Assembly (NCBI GenBank): GCA_964617125.1
Contig: CAZTVS010000001.1
Location: 14,296-78,295, forward strand
Direction of reading: 5' to 3'
Source of the DNA: an uncultured Acidobacteriota bacterium
Lineage (GTDB): Bacteria; Acidobacteriota; UBA6911; CAINFC01
DNA: 64,000 bases
The notes below the pieces were generated by a model. That model made no database searches, was not told the origin of the DNA, and saw only the letters and a list, made by a program, of their open reading frames with translations. Below, piece after piece: positions 1,505-8,912 of the stretch. Both the position numbers and the translations under genes were made by a program. Within the stretch, counting starts at the first letter, position 1, and each line of letters begins with the position of its first letter.

Positions 1505-3865
1505 ATGAAATCGAAAATGGATAATGAAAATATCGGCGTTAACCAGCGGGTAGATTCGGCTGCGGTACCACTGTCCGGAGATCCCGTCTTTTGGCGTGTG
1601 GAAGGCAGCCTCCTGAATCTCGGGGCGGTCCGTCCGGTGGCCTTTTTCACCTGGAATGCCCAGAGTTTTACCGAGAGGTGGATACGAAGGGGACTTCTCT
1701 TCCTATCCGCTCTGTTTCGGCCGTTGCTCTATGCTTGTAACCGGTCCTTTGCTACCCGATTGCTCCATATCCTGCTTCGCGGTGTCAGCCGGGACCGTAT
1801 GGATCTTCTGGGAGAGGAATTCTTCGAGTACCGGTTGAAACCCAATCTGCGTAAGAAGGGGGTAGATTGCCTGAAGCAGCACCTGATGGCGGGAGAACGT
1901 ATCATTCTGGTCAGTCAGGGGTTGGATCACCTGATGAAGCCCCTGGCGGCCTTCCTCGGCGTGAAAGAGGTGCTGGCTAACCGGCTTGATTTCCACCAGG
2001 GTTTGGCGACCGGGAGATTGATCGGACCGGTCATACGTCCGCGAGGTCTGTTCGCCCGCATAAAACGCCGTAAGCCGGATGGCAGGATGTCGACCGAAGA
2101 ACTCTATCGGGATCTGGGTTTTTCCGTGACCATTCCCGATCTGCTCCAGGACGTAATGCCTTCCCGGCGGGAAAATCACGTCGTCATTTTTCCGGCGGTC
2201 GTATGCGATGATCAGGAAAAAACGGCCGGCTTTTCCGTCCGGGAGAATCTCTCCGGGAAAACGATCCTGCTCATTGGGGTCACCGGATTTATCGGAAAGG
2301 TATGGCTCACCCAGCTGCTGGAAAATCTGCCGGAAATCCGAAAGATCTACCTGTTGATTCGGAAACAACGTTCTTCCACGGCCCAGAAACGTTTTAAGAA
2401 AATGATGGAGGATTCTCCCGTCTTTGATACCCTCTATGAAAGGCACGGATCCGATTTTACCCGTTTCATGGAGAGTTATGTCGAGGTTATCGAAGGAGAT
2501 CTGACGAAAAGCAATCTGGGACTCGACGAAGATGTCGCGCAAAAACTACGTGAGGAACTGGATCTGGTTGTCAACAGCTCCGGATTGACCGATTTTAATC
2601 CTGATCTGCGTAGTGCTATCACCGCGAATATTGAAGCTCCCTTGCAGGCTGTCGAATTTATTCGCAGTTGCCGGAAGGCTGCCCTGATGCATCTTTCCAC
2701 CTGTTTCGTAGCCGGTTTGTGCGATGGACGTATCCCCGAGAATCCCTCGGCAAATTATAATCCCAAGAGAGATAAGAATTTCCAGGCAGAACAGGAACTG
2801 ATTACCGTCCGGAAACTGGTTGCTGAGGCGGTACTGTATTCCGAAAGTGATGAACTGGGTAAAGAACTCGAAGATCAGTTGCAGGGCAAAAAGACAGGGG
2901 AAGACGCCGCCAACACCGGAATCTCCGAGACTCAAGTACGCAAGGCCCGTTCCCGTTGGTTACGGCAACAGGTTACCGATATAGGCATTCAACGGGCCAG
3001 ACTCTGGGGCTGGCCCAACATTTATACCTACACAAAAAGTCTGACCGAATCCCTGATAGAAACCCGTGCCCATGATTTGCCGATAGCCATCGTCAGGCCT
3101 TCCATCGTGGAGACATCGACACATCATCCTTTTCCCGGATGGAATGAAGGAGTGAATACATCCGCTCCACTTTCCTATCTTTTAGGGACCTACTTTCGTC
3201 AGCTCCCGTCCAACGAGGAGAAATGTCTCGACATCGTACCTGTCGACCTGGTTTGCCGAGGAATGACCTTGATCGCAGCTGCTCTGGTTACCCGACACCA
3301 TCAAAGGGTGTATCAATTGGCCTCCTCCTCCAAAAATCCGTGCAACATGCGCCGATCCATCGAATTGACCGGGCTGGCTCATAGAAAACACTACCGCGCC
3401 CAGGAAGGGCTGGAATCCTGGCTGCGAGCGCGTTCCGATTCCATTTCCGTATCCAAAACACGTTACGAACAGATGTCCGTTCCCCGGCAAAAGAAGCTCA
3501 TACACCTCCTGCAGTTGCTGAGTCGGCCTGTTCCGCCGCTGGTGAAAAGTCTGGTTCGCAAGGAGAGGGCCATGGAGCGGGTCGAGGGTATCGTCGAACT
3601 TTATGAACCGTTTATCCTTCATAATCAGCACGTATTCGAATCGGATCACATAGAATTCTTGTCTCAGGCCATTCCGGAAGAAGAGAGATCCCTGTTCGGT
3701 TATGACGTATTCGGTTTTGACTGGTGGCATTACTGGATTAATATCCATGTTCCGGCTTTACGCAAGTGGTGTTATCCGTTGATCGAACAAAAACCGATGG
3801 AACATCGCCGGTCCAGGTCACTTTCGTCCTCGGACCAAGCACAGAACCTCAATCAAGACATATGA
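1505..3865 (+). CDS. Fusion protein: N-terminal HAD-IB-like (degenerate motif I) domain + C-terminal fatty acyl-CoA reductase (NAD_binding_4/male-sterility type)
   Basis: N-terminus resembles HAD-IB hydrolases, but motif I reads [10 protein letters not shown] instead of FFDxDGTL. C-terminal half has Rossmann motif GVTGFIGK and FAR catalytic YTYTK (YxxxK). 786 aa. Confidence 0.7.
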
Positions 3866-5007
3866 ACATCTTTCTTACCGGCTCCACTGGGTATATCGGC
3901 GCACATGTAGCGTATAATCTTCTTTCTTCGAATCCGGAACATCGGTTGAATCTGCTGGTTCGGGCCAAGGACCTTGGCGAAGCCAGAGACCGTATCTGGC
4001 AGGCGTGGCAGCTGCATGACGAATTTCCCCTCATTCGTGAATGGCTGGGCACAAGGGTGCAGATCTTTACCGGCGATCTGACCTCGTCGCAATTCGGTCT
4101 CAGTGCCGAGAGTTACACCAAGCTGATACGTACTTCCGATTCGATCATTCATTGCGCGGCCTCGCTCAATCGACGATCGGAGAAGTCCTGTCTCAAGGTC
4201 AATCTGCGCGGCACTCTGGAAATGACCCAGCTGGGCATGCGTATTCGAGAGGACCACGGTCTGCAGTGTTTCAGCCATGTGAGCACAGTGGCCGTGGCCG
4301 GAGTGCGACATAACGAAGTCGTGGTGGAGGATCGTTCGGTGGATTGGGAACGCTCCGACTACGATCCCTATGCCCGTACCAAGAAGTTTTGCGAACACAT
4401 GATACAGGAGCTGTTGAGGGGCGTTCCCGTCAACATTTTTCGTCCCAGTATCGTTCTGGGAGACAGCCGCTATGGAAAGACAACCCAATTCGATATGGTG
4501 CAGGCGTTTGTATTTTTAGCCGGCTTGCCTGTTTTACCCTTCAGGTCCACAGACCAGATCGATATCGTCAACGTGGATTACGTGGCGGAGGCCATAGCCA
4601 GAATCCATACCCAGATCGAGCCCGGGCCTGGAGTTCGAATTTTTCATCTTTCTTCAGGGAAATCGTCTCAAACCTATCGGGAACTGACCAAGGCACTGGC
4701 GGAAAAGCAGGGGAAAAGGACGCCGATCTTTCTTCCTTGCCTGGAAAAGCCGTTTACTTCTCTGGTGAATTTTCTGGCGAACCGGAGGTCGTTGCCGGGG
4801 AGCCGGCTTGCTTCCCTGATGAAGGTGTTCATGCCCTATCTGGTCTGGAACACGGTGTTCGACAACCGCCGGGTGGTGGAAACGATCGGTTATGCGCCCA
4901 AACCATTTACGGATTATTGTTATCCGCTGTTGAAATTCAGCTTGGAGAATCATTTTCGTTATCCCTATCGTAGTTGGCCGGAACAGCAAGGAAACAAAAC
5001 CATATGA
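3862..5007 (+). CDS. SDR-family thioester reductase / fatty acyl reductase-like (NAD_binding_4)
   Basis: N-terminal [13 protein letters not shown]ossmann motif and catalytic YARTK (YxxxK). ATG at 3862 overlaps the upstream stop (ATGA at 3862-3865). Confidence 0.7.
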
Positions 5008-8083: not shown

Positions 8084-8108
8084 AGGCGAAATCATCAAGG
8101 AACCTTTC

Positions 8109-8912
8109 ATGGGAAATTTTCAAGGACAATCCCTGTCCTGGGAATCTAAGGACCAAATCATCGAACTGGCCCTGCACCAGTCCCCGTGTAACGAGATCGG
8201 AACCGTCATGTTGGGGGAACTGGAAACCTTTGTCGCAGCATTGCCGGTTCTGCAGACAGAGAACAACGCTCTGATTCTTTACAGTCGATTGCCTTCCGGT
8301 TTTAGTGCCGGCGCCGACCTACGTGAGTTCTGGCGGGGGATATATGGGCTTCCGCTTTCCGATCGCAGGAACGGAATACGTTCCTTCCTGCAGCGGATTC
8401 ATCGAGTCATGAATACCTTGGATATGGCTCCCATTCTGACCATCGCCGCTGTCCACGGAGTAACCTTCGGGGGAGGTTTTGAACTGGCTCTGACTTCCGA
8501 TCTGATCATTGCGGAAAAGAGTGCCCGATTCTGTTTCCCGGAGTTACGTTTGGGCCTGATTCCCGGTTTTGGAGGAATTCCTCGCCTGCGAAGAGATATC
8601 GGAAATGCAGCCATCCGTGACCTGCTGCTGACCGGCAGAAGCTGGAATGCAGTCAGAGCCCAGCAAATCGGTCTGGTATCCCAACTGGTCGGAGAGGGAC
8701 AGGCTTTGGAAACGGCTCGCCGGGCAGCTCTGCAACAAAACAAATTCGATGCAGGGACCCGTAAGGCAGCCAAGTTTTTCATCAAGGACCTTCCACGGGA
8801 AGAACTGGAACGGGAAATGGAAATATTTTGCGATTTGGTAAGTCGACCCGCTCTGGAAGAGGGTTTGAGGAGATTTGTGGAAAACCGTGGACCCCTTCCT
8901 TACCTGCCGTAA
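8109..8912 (+). CDS. Enoyl-CoA hydratase/isomerase (crotonase family)
   Basis: Crotonase oxyanion-hole region FSAGADLREF and GGGFELALTSDLIIA ... ELRLGLIPGFGG. Confidence 0.75.
   Translation: MGNFQGQSLSWESKDQIIELALHQSPCNEIGTVMLGELETFVAALPVLQTENNALILYSRLPSGFSAGADLREFWRGIYGLPLSDRRNGIRSFLQRIHRVMNTLDMAPILTIAAVHGVTFGGGFELALTSDLIIAEKSARFCFPELRLGLIPGFGGIPRLRRDIGNAAIRDLLLTGRSWNAVRAQQIGLVSQLVGEGQALETARRAALQQNKFDAGTRKAAKFFIKDLPREELEREMEIFCDLVSRPALEEGLRRFVENRGPLPYLP

Follow-up and report, generated by a model that had tools for sequence, protein, structure and literature searches.

Five tightly packed genes on the forward strand of a 64,000-nucleotide stretch of contig CAZTVS010000001.1 (this whole 64-kb stretch is hereafter called the window) make up the front module of a lipid operon that is conserved in Acidobacteriota and some of their relatives. 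In order, they encode a HAD-like domain fused to a fatty acyl-CoA reductase (FAR), a second, stand-alone thioester reductase (TR2), a pyruvyl-transferase-family protein of PF04230 (PPT), an acyl-CoA synthetase-type ligase (ACS) and a crotonase-fold enoyl-CoA hydratase (ECH). On the basis of gene contexts, natural fusions and conserved residues, we tentatively propose that this module may assemble a glycerol ether lipid whose three-carbon backbone would come from phosphoenolpyruvate (PEP), and not from glycerol-3-phosphate, a reading that we prefer with clear reservations. The initial annotation of this DNA had guessed at lipids derived from fatty alcohols, ether lipids among them, and our evidence, all of it from sequence, points the same way. 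The genes, the two parts of gene 1 and one candidate control signal are the following.

1505-3865, forward: gene 1 (HAD-like::FAR), an open reading frame (ORF) matching PF12710, PF07993 and PF03015
1505..2224, forward: N-terminal HAD-IB-like domain of gene 1 (PF12710, 1e-15), catalytically degenerate
2225..3865, forward: FAR part of gene 1 (PF07993, 3e-52), with a GVTGFIGK Rossmann motif, YTYTK and a C-terminal 'Sterile' domain
3862-5007, forward: gene 2 (TR2), stand-alone thioester reductase of the type found as the terminal reductase (R) domain of nonribosomal peptide synthetases (NRPS) and polyketide synthases (PKS) (PF07993, 3e-48)
5004-6419, forward: gene 3 (PPT), 471-residue PF04230 pyruvyl-transferase-family protein (1e-11)
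6416-8083, forward: gene 4 (ACS), adenylate-forming ligase of the long-chain acyl-CoA synthetase type (PF00501, 2e-55; PF23562)
8109-8912, forward: gene 5 (ECH), crotonase-fold enoyl-CoA hydratase (PF00378, 3e-34)
1444..1472, forward: candidate promoter-like site TTGATA-17-TATTTT with an upstream TG, weak, in the 112-nt gap 5' of gene 1

Conservation and extent of the operon

A scan of species-representative genomes placed the gene set in at least 591 species-level genomes, mostly of Acidobacteriota. Gene order was checked by tblastn of the window proteins on the best 80 of these at least 591 loci, and the order HAD-FAR, TR2, PPT, ACS, ECH was found in every one of the 80 with enough flank. 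The titles of 76 of these best 80 loci name Acidobacteriota or one of its subgroups, namely, Acidobacteriaceae, Terriglobales, Blastocatellia, Candidatus Sulfotelmatobacter and Candidatus Acidoferrum. A metagenome scan seeded with distant PPT homologues recovered acidobacterial-type and divergent loci, the latter with a PPT 46-55% identical to that of the window, and most of 80 such loci show the same order, with up to ten genes. The partners found in these metagenome loci, counted among those whose contig permits the check, are given below.

TR2: acidobacterial-type 35/35, divergent 14/18
FAR: acidobacterial-type 23/24, divergent 7/10
ACS: acidobacterial-type 36/37, divergent 15/22
ECH: acidobacterial-type 25/29, divergent 13/19
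Second ligase: acidobacterial-type 16/20, divergent 8/13
Kinase: acidobacterial-type 13/17, divergent 3/11

This arrangement is far beyond chance, and the operon spans Terriglobia, Blastocatellia and deeper lineages. PPT itself has more than 7800 homologues, the best 120 of which are 67-76% identical to it, those with a name coming from Acidobacteria, Terriglobia or Sulfotelmatobacter. Across Acidobacteriota, PPT is 65-76% identical whereas GlyS is 42-44% identical, which implies that either the constraint is exceptionally strong or the operon has spread laterally. As for the host, the closest genome locus listed, from an Acidobacteria metagenome-assembled genome (MAG; locus L001), has in common with the window an upstream membrane protein, GlgC and one more downstream gene; and the window GlyS (16940-19057) shows 65-69% identity to three proteins and 42-44% to all named relatives, all of them Acidobacteriota. 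Together with the PPT matches and the titles of the genome loci, these flanks and identities point to a deep-branching relative of Acidobacteriota, and not to the anaerobe of the Desulfobacterota that had first been suspected.

ATGA stop/start overlaps can be read in the sequence at 3862-3865, 5004-5007 and 6416-6419, the PPT gene overlapping in this manner with both its neighbours, TR2 and ACS, and a 25-nt spacer with AAGGA separates the ACS and ECH genes. The five-ORF layout, the stated domains and the three junctions are thus as initially annotated, and profile hidden Markov model annotation of each ORF recovered all the domains that had been named, PF04230 included. The claim of obligate co-translation, by contrast, was an over-reading, since 4-nt overlaps are commonplace in compact operons and do not demonstrate it. 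The sole strongly conserved overlap of the unit is that between TR2 and PPT, kept in 55 of 70 genome loci and 41 of 61 metagenome loci; the figures are 5/70 and 19/57 for PPT/ACS, and 3/67 and 25/40 for ACS/ECH. Promoter and terminator scans of the region gave a count not above shuffle expectation. Gene 1 may start at 1517 and not at 1505, the identical database protein being 782 residues long. A search of the operon proteins against NCBIfam returned generic names only, none above an equivalog cutoff, and in database entries gene 1 appears as 'SDR family oxidoreductase' and gene 3 as 'polysaccharide pyruvyl transferase family protein'.

The description of the locus as a five-gene operon stands with regard to tight packing but not with regard to extent, as these genes make up only module 1 of a larger conserved set, which can count as many as ten. 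Clustering of flanking ORFs showed that in 43-46 of 54 long genome loci the unit is extended, on the same strand, by genes for a second AMP-binding ligase and a DAGK_cat/YegS_C lipid kinase (module 2). The kinase passes the cutoff of the YegS/Rv2252/BmrU family (129 bits versus 119), a gene for an 80-residue acyl carrier protein (ACP) lies in the gap 5' of the second ligase, and a true FabH is added in Blastocatellia-type loci. In one locus (L126), a block of ACP, ligase, kinase and PlsC (684-4442, reverse strand) is located upstream of, and divergent from, module 1 (6481-13138, forward strand), from which it follows that the set behaves as two separable modules. Module 2 was not found within the 64-kb window, and L001 likewise has module 1 only.

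Directly 3' of the crotonase gene, both in the window (9087-10385, forward; 587 bits versus a cutoff of 537) and in L001 (78% identity), there is a GlgC gene, which sits where most relatives carry the ACP-ligase-kinase module. A weak ACP-like match at the far end of the window (63536-63733, reverse), 27% identical to the operon-type ACP and adjoining an ORF at 62119-63360, is probably the housekeeping acpP region and not the missing module 2. In Terriglobia-type loci, the lipid kinase is followed 3' by a conserved 141-residue protein with no family match (L003, 17189-17614; L006, 17055-17480), and beyond it by a VKOR-family protein, an esterase and opposite-strand GT87 glycosyltransferases.

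Catalytic signatures of the module 1 enzymes

The architecture of gene 1 is identical in all 120 homologues listed. The match of its N-terminal domain to PF12710 covers profile positions 29-161 only, and that to TIGR01490 (3e-14) is below the cutoff of the model. In 62 of 62 orthologues, alignment showed WRVEGSL where HAD motif I, DxDxT, would stand; motifs III and IV are missing. Devoid of the nucleophilic Asp and of the later motifs, this domain cannot act as a conventional phosphatase, and the 'HAD-like' label of the initial annotation does not therefore denote an enzyme of that sort. In one divergent contig the domain is encoded by a separate gene of 222 residues. The best solved relative of the FAR part is a fatty acyl-CoA reductase (7eoz, E 2e-51); GVTGFIGK and the active-site YTYTK (YTxTK in the alignment) are kept in the orthologues; and the 'Sterile' domain, PF03015, scores 3e-8 and 34.1 bits, slightly below its cutoff of 35.4, and is recorded in all 120 homologues listed. 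In terms of sequence features, namely, NAD_binding_4, GxxGxxG, YxxxK and Sterile, this part of gene 1 is that of an alcohol-forming fatty acyl-CoA reductase.

Motif alignments, which took in 62-81 orthologues, were equally clear for the three other enzymes. TR2 matches TIGR01746 (7e-41) and has its motifs GSTGYIG and YARTK conserved in 71 orthologues, its best solved relatives being MxaA (3e-20), which we take to be an alcohol-forming terminal reductase, and the R domains of PKS and carboxylic acid reductases. ACS consists of an AMP-binding (PF00501) and an AMP-binding_C_3 (PF23562) domain, its best NCBIfam match is FadD11-like, and YTSGTSGEPKG, YGLTE, GRIKN and NGKLKR are conserved. ECH matches PF00378 (ECH_1) with 118.7 bits; GFSAGADL, GGGFELAL and FPELRLG, which hold both catalytic glutamates and the oxyanion hole, are conserved in 71 orthologues, and the best solved relatives, EchA8 and crotonase, are ordinary hydratases. 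At the level of motifs, the catalytic residues of FAR, TR2, ACS and ECH are all intact.

PPT scores 45.4 bits against PF04230 (cutoff 25.3, residues 146-365) and 72.3 bits against the CsaB equivalog model TIGR03609, whose cutoff is 213.1; it is accordingly a member of the PF04230 family, whose ketal pyruvyltransferases include CsaB, Pvg1p and WcaK, and not a CsaB orthologue. Sequence searches of the PDB with PPT and its profile gave no match even at E 10. Its AlphaFold2 model (pLDDT 83, pTM 0.83) has a GT-B-like two-domain fold, for which Foldseek returned only generic GT-B enzymes from the PDB (E about 1e-7 to 1e-5). In CsaB, mutagenesis has identified R148, R306, H308 and K328 as residues that bind PEP (PMC10435577). 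Their counterparts in PPT, assigned by motif and not by residue-level alignment, are R176 (TRNEES), R347-Y-H349 (SSRYHG) and R369. None of R176, R347, H349 and R369 varies among 24 orthologues, and in 78 full-length representatives with 28-50% identity they are at least 90% conserved. Given this conservation, the chemistry of PPT is likely to be PEP-dependent.

Gene contexts of PPT homologues and a proposed pathway

The conserved neighbours of PPT are reductases, ligases, a crotonase, an ACP and a lipid kinase, and no glycan-assembly setting was found around it. A HMMER search for PPT homologues, which yielded 234 cluster representatives at E <= 1e-30, extended this picture. First, two natural fusions exist. 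In one (P0304), PPT is fused to ACS and followed by a TR2-type reductase, a membrane protein, a short-chain dehydrogenase/reductase (SDR) and a FAAL-reductase protein, the ACS-type domain so fused in locus L083 being 30% identical to the window ACS. In the other (P0264), the C-terminal domain of FAR is fused to PPT, with the N-terminal part of FAR upstream, and ECH, ACP and a ligase of the second type downstream. Second, at 50% identity (P0248), a separate HAD gene precedes FAR, TR2, PPT, ACS and ECH, mostly with 4-nt overlaps, and an ACP and a ligase come further on. Third, PPT homologues occur with other enzymes in other contexts: a trio of FAR, PPT and NMO, the last a FabK-like flavin mononucleotide (FMN) enoyl reductase (P0257, locus L082); an overlap with a thiamine diphosphate (ThDP) enzyme that scores 293 bits on the MenD equivalog, whose cutoff is 244 (P0273, context of L085/L086); and a position between a thioesterase and a type I PKS, at 34% identity (P0298, context of L087). 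The homologues that are translationally coupled to the MenD equivalog share 40% identity with the window PPT.

The fusions imply that FAR passes something to PPT and that ACS activates the product of PPT. As PPT would add a PEP-derived carboxylate, it is most simply this group that ACS would activate. Moreover, in three independent contexts the gene 3' of PPT, mostly overlapping it, acts on an alpha,beta-unsaturated carboxylate or thioester, namely, ACS together with the enoyl-CoA hydratase, the FabK-like enzyme and the MenD-type enzyme, which argues for an enolpyruvyl ether (2-alkoxyacrylate) as the product of PPT. An analogy can be drawn with megapolipeptin A, in which C2 of a 2-hydroxy-4-oxoheptanedioate unit is attached to a lipid hydroxyl through one C2-O ether, with no ketal, and whose cluster carries genes for a pyruvyl transferase and a ThDP lyase (PMC11411415). 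This unit would be the expected product of a MenD-type addition to a 2-alkoxyacrylate.

On these grounds, the following sequence of reactions may be envisaged. First, the FAR part of gene 1 would reduce a fatty acyl thioester to the fatty alcohol, a known reaction of the family with a presumed substrate. Second, PPT would transfer the enolpyruvyl group of PEP onto this alcohol to give a 2-alkoxyacrylate, which would amount to the first half-reaction of the ketal pyruvyl transferases and be analogous to the reaction of MurA. Third, ACS, as suggested by the PPT::ACS fusion, would convert the carboxylate of the 2-alkoxyacrylate into its CoA thioester. Fourth, the crotonase would hydrate C3, yielding 2-O-alkyl-glyceroyl-CoA. 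Fifth, TR2 would reduce this thioester to 2-O-alkylglycerol. In most relatives, the enzymes of module 2 would then add a phosphate to one of the free hydroxyls and an acyl chain to the other, leading to an analogue of phosphatidic acid; the kinase and acyltransferase of this module call for a lipid-tailed product that bears two free hydroxyls, as an alkylglycerol does. Such a pathway would use each gene once, and would account for the need for two reductases and two ligases.

Points against the pathway and alternative explanations

Several observations weigh against this proposal. We know of no PF04230 enzyme shown to release an enolpyruvyl ether. The only lipid-acting member of the family assayed in vitro, DxpH, forms a 1,3-dioxane ketal from a lipid-chain 1,3-diol and PEP (PMC12964715). 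An alpha-alkoxy group weakens the Michael acceptor, making hydration by the crotonase harder. The predicted product is a 2-O-alkyl monoether, and such monoethers are known from sulfate reducers (PMC5552659). Ether lipids are reported in only some cultured subdivision 1 strains (PMC13274423), whereas the operon seems near-universal in Acidobacteriaceae MAGs. A gene for a PlsC-type acyltransferase is present in only a subset of loci. One locus, L084, has FAR, PPT, ECH, ACP and ligase but neither ACS nor TR2. Finally, the lineage of L097, L099, L103 and L104 has an unclustered PPT (52-53% identity) with no lipid genes alongside, and some further distant homologues are unclustered as well. The neighbours of the unclustered PPT in these four loci include a methyltransferase, an SBP_bac_5 protein, sigma-70-family proteins and a Ser/Thr kinase-TPR protein.

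The main rival of the enolpyruvyl-ether pathway is a lipid with a pyruvate ketal on an alkane-1,3-diol, which we consider rather unlikely. According to this explanation, the crotonase would give a 3-hydroxyacyl-CoA, a reductase would take it to the alkane-1,3-diol, and PPT would close a pyruvate ketal across the diol; the ketal, a 2-methyl-1,3-dioxane-2-carboxylate, would be activated by ACS and reduced by the second reductase, and the resulting alcohol phosphorylated by the kinase. Each enzyme would thereby perform a textbook reaction or one with precedent, and DxpH, the only in vitro precedent, uses PEP to form just this kind of ketal on a lipid 1,3-diol. Consistent with it are also the homologue at 34% identity between a thioesterase and a type I PKS, the TR2/PPT overlap as the best-conserved junction, and L084, whose reduced set would be a complete minimal pathway; the SDR in L083 could supply the 3-hydroxyl instead of the crotonase. 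However, the enoyl thioester has no maker in the operon and would need an outside source, and the end product has one hydroxyl, so that the PlsC-type acyltransferase would be left without a substrate. Nor does a ketal explain the enoyl reductase and the MenD equivalog coupled to PPT homologues, or the C2 ether of megapolipeptin. Moreover, 1,3-diols are not known to have been reported in acidobacterial hydrolysates.

An elb-like route to a 1-O-alkyl lipid, with the Elb domain types spread over separate genes and a non-canonical PPT, engaged for instance in alkyl transfer or scaffolding, and no enolpyruvyl transfer, seems to us improbable. The domain types of the HAD-like ElbB, of the NAD-epimerase proteins ElbA and ElbE, and of ElbD (FAR-ACS-ACP-AGPAT) do recur in the operon and in module 2, the published account of elb describes its ether-forming steps as unknown, and elb-like clusters in sponge symbionts neighbour genes for glycerol-3-phosphate acyltransferase and diacylglycerol (DAG) kinase. 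Yet the elb listing has neither a PF04230 protein nor a crotonase, and PPT keeps motif-level counterparts of the PEP-binding residues of CsaB.

We give very little credence to a tailoring cassette of specialised metabolism, similar to dxp or mgp, that would decorate a secreted lipid or lipopeptide and not a membrane lipid. It would accommodate the homologues at 33-40% identity in PKS-linked or MenD-linked contexts, and the published DxpH and MgpK, which belong to polyunsaturated fatty acid (PUFA)-synthase/NRPS clusters. It is made unlikely by the absence of PKS and NRPS genes from the window locus and from any acidobacterial-type locus, and by phylum-wide conservation, that is, a fixed gene order in at least 591 species genomes and a conservation of PPT above that of GlyS that fits core metabolism. 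As for an ordinary fatty alcohol, aldehyde, wax or beta-oxidation module beside a pyruvyl transferase for exopolysaccharide or cell-wall glycans, which would agree with the mostly glycan-directed PF04230 members of known function and with the GT87 genes a few genes downstream on the opposite strand in Terriglobia-type loci, the fusions of PPT with ACS and with the FAR C-terminal domain, and its place inside the operon with 4-nt overlaps with TR2 and ACS, lead us to reject glycan pyruvylation, the conserved core having moreover no glycosyltransferase, flippase or polymerase, and, for the wax variant, no WS/DGAT gene in the neighbourhood.

Surroundings of the operon in the window

Upstream of the operon, positions 1-1392 (forward) encode part of a multi-pass membrane protein of 560 residues that matches nothing in Pfam or NCBIfam; a 42%-identical counterpart of it is found upstream of the operon in L001, not directly adjacent to the latter. 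A pyruvate,phosphate dikinase gene (14011-16827, reverse; PPDK_N, PEP-utilizers, PEP-utilizers_C) is located 5 kb downstream of PPT. The vicinity of this PEP-forming enzyme is probably a coincidence, the neighbourhood not being conserved beyond L001. The window also contains GlyQ/GlyS, Ffh, a Ser/Thr kinase, a tricorn-like protease, tRNA-Ser(GGA) at 20813-20902 and tRNA-Glu(TTC) at 49511-49588, both tRNAs on the reverse strand; this is an ordinary chromosomal context, and around the operon there is no sign of a mobile element.

Implications for acidobacterial lipids

Branched glycerol dialkyl glycerol tetraethers (GDGTs) and related ether lipids serve worldwide as temperature and pH proxies. 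How ether bonds are formed in aerobic Acidobacteria was nevertheless described as still unresolved in 2026 (PMC13274423). Ger occurs in all alkyl-ether producers examined except Acidobacteria, where its occurrence is inconsistent (two ether-producing strains of those screened), and in this phylum no mss homologue was found and Tes was present in 3 of 14 genomes (PMC13159169). The elb operon has been proposed for subdivision 4 Acidobacteria only. Since Ger is not consistently found in ether-producing Acidobacteria, there is a gap that the operon could fill. That it is in fact the missing oxygen-tolerant route to their ether lipids, building a glycerol backbone from PEP on a fatty alcohol and supplying among others the sn-2 ether for monoethers and branched GDGTs, is a doubtful proposition at present.

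Whatever its product, the operon is a previously undescribed lipid gene set of five to ten genes, very widespread and under strong constraint, and it offers bacterial lipid biochemistry and organic geochemistry an explicit, stepwise hypothesis. Should the enolpyruvyl-ether route hold, glycerolipid backbones would be made in a new way and the PF04230 family would gain a reaction of a new type; should the ketal route hold instead, the product would be a new class of membrane lipid. With either route, the operon would offer a candidate genomic marker by which to trace producers in soils.

Comparison with known systems

A search of the published full text found no description of this gene set. No described pathway matches it, and the initial statement that it does not match known wax-ester, Ole, Elb or plasmalogen clusters is borne out. 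WS/DGAT acyltransferases are absent from all conserved neighbours of FAR; among the annotated window genes and the conserved neighbours there are no genes for AGPS (flavin adenine dinucleotide-linked) or GNPAT, nor any of the 2-hydroxyacyl-CoA dehydratase/BcrAD activator type that characterizes PlsA/PlsR/Ger; and the multidomain ElbD, with FAR-like, ACS, ACP and AGPAT domains in one protein, is not in the window, its domain types being separate genes in related loci. As the genes that define wax-ester, Ole, AGPS and PlsA/Ger systems are absent, we rejected these readings.

The systems that do bear a resemblance to the operon differ from it in instructive ways. The eukaryotic and myxobacterial FAR-GNPAT-AGPS system and the anaerobic PlsA/PlsR-Ger system also lead to alkyl glycerol ethers, and the AGPS route likewise begins with a fatty alcohol made by FAR; they differ from the proposed pathway in that they start from a preformed dihydroxyacetone phosphate or glycerol backbone and give sn-1 ethers, and Ger sn-2 ethers too. 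MurA and MurB are similar in mechanism only: the enolpyruvyl group of PEP is placed on an alcohol and its C=C bond is then processed, a pair of steps mirrored by the FAR, PPT and FabK-like trio of L082, whereas the fold of MurA is unrelated (neither PF04230 nor GT-B) and its acceptor is UDP-GlcNAc. DxpH, from the dioxanopeptin pathway of Chitinimonas koreensis, is, as is proposed for PPT, a PEP-dependent pyruvyl transferase that acts on a lipid chain, through its hydroxyls, and not on a sugar, and likely homologues of the DxpH cluster type are about 34% identical to the window PPT over the full length. DxpH makes a cyclic ketal on a 1,3-diol as late tailoring within a PUFA-synthase/NRPS cluster, whereas PPT belongs to an operon of reductases, ligase and hydratase. 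MgpK and MgpL, from the megapolipeptin cluster, would follow a logic like that of the proposed pathway, in that a PEP-derived unit is held on a lipid hydroxyl by a single C2 ether and receives a new substituent at C3; this addition is of a carbanion derived from 2-oxoglutarate, the roles of MgpK and MgpL being themselves proposed, whereas in the pathway put forward here it would be of water, after activation with CoA.

Finally, the elb operon of Myxococcus xanthus encodes the HAD-like ElbB, the NAD-epimerase-family ElbA and ElbE, ElbC and the multidomain ElbD (FAR-ACS-ACP-AGPAT), with ether-forming steps described as unknown (PMC9131029). Compared by domain description, both sets have a HAD-like protein, FAR-like and NAD-epimerase-family reductases, an acyl ligase, an ACP and a PlsC/AGPAT acyltransferase, and both are found in aerobes. 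While elb fuses most of these domains in ElbD, here they are encoded by separate genes, with the HAD-like part fused to FAR, and a PF04230 protein, a crotonase and a lipid kinase are not listed for elb. The operon described here is therefore set apart from elb by its transferase, likely PEP-dependent, by its crotonase and, in most genomes, by its lipid kinase.

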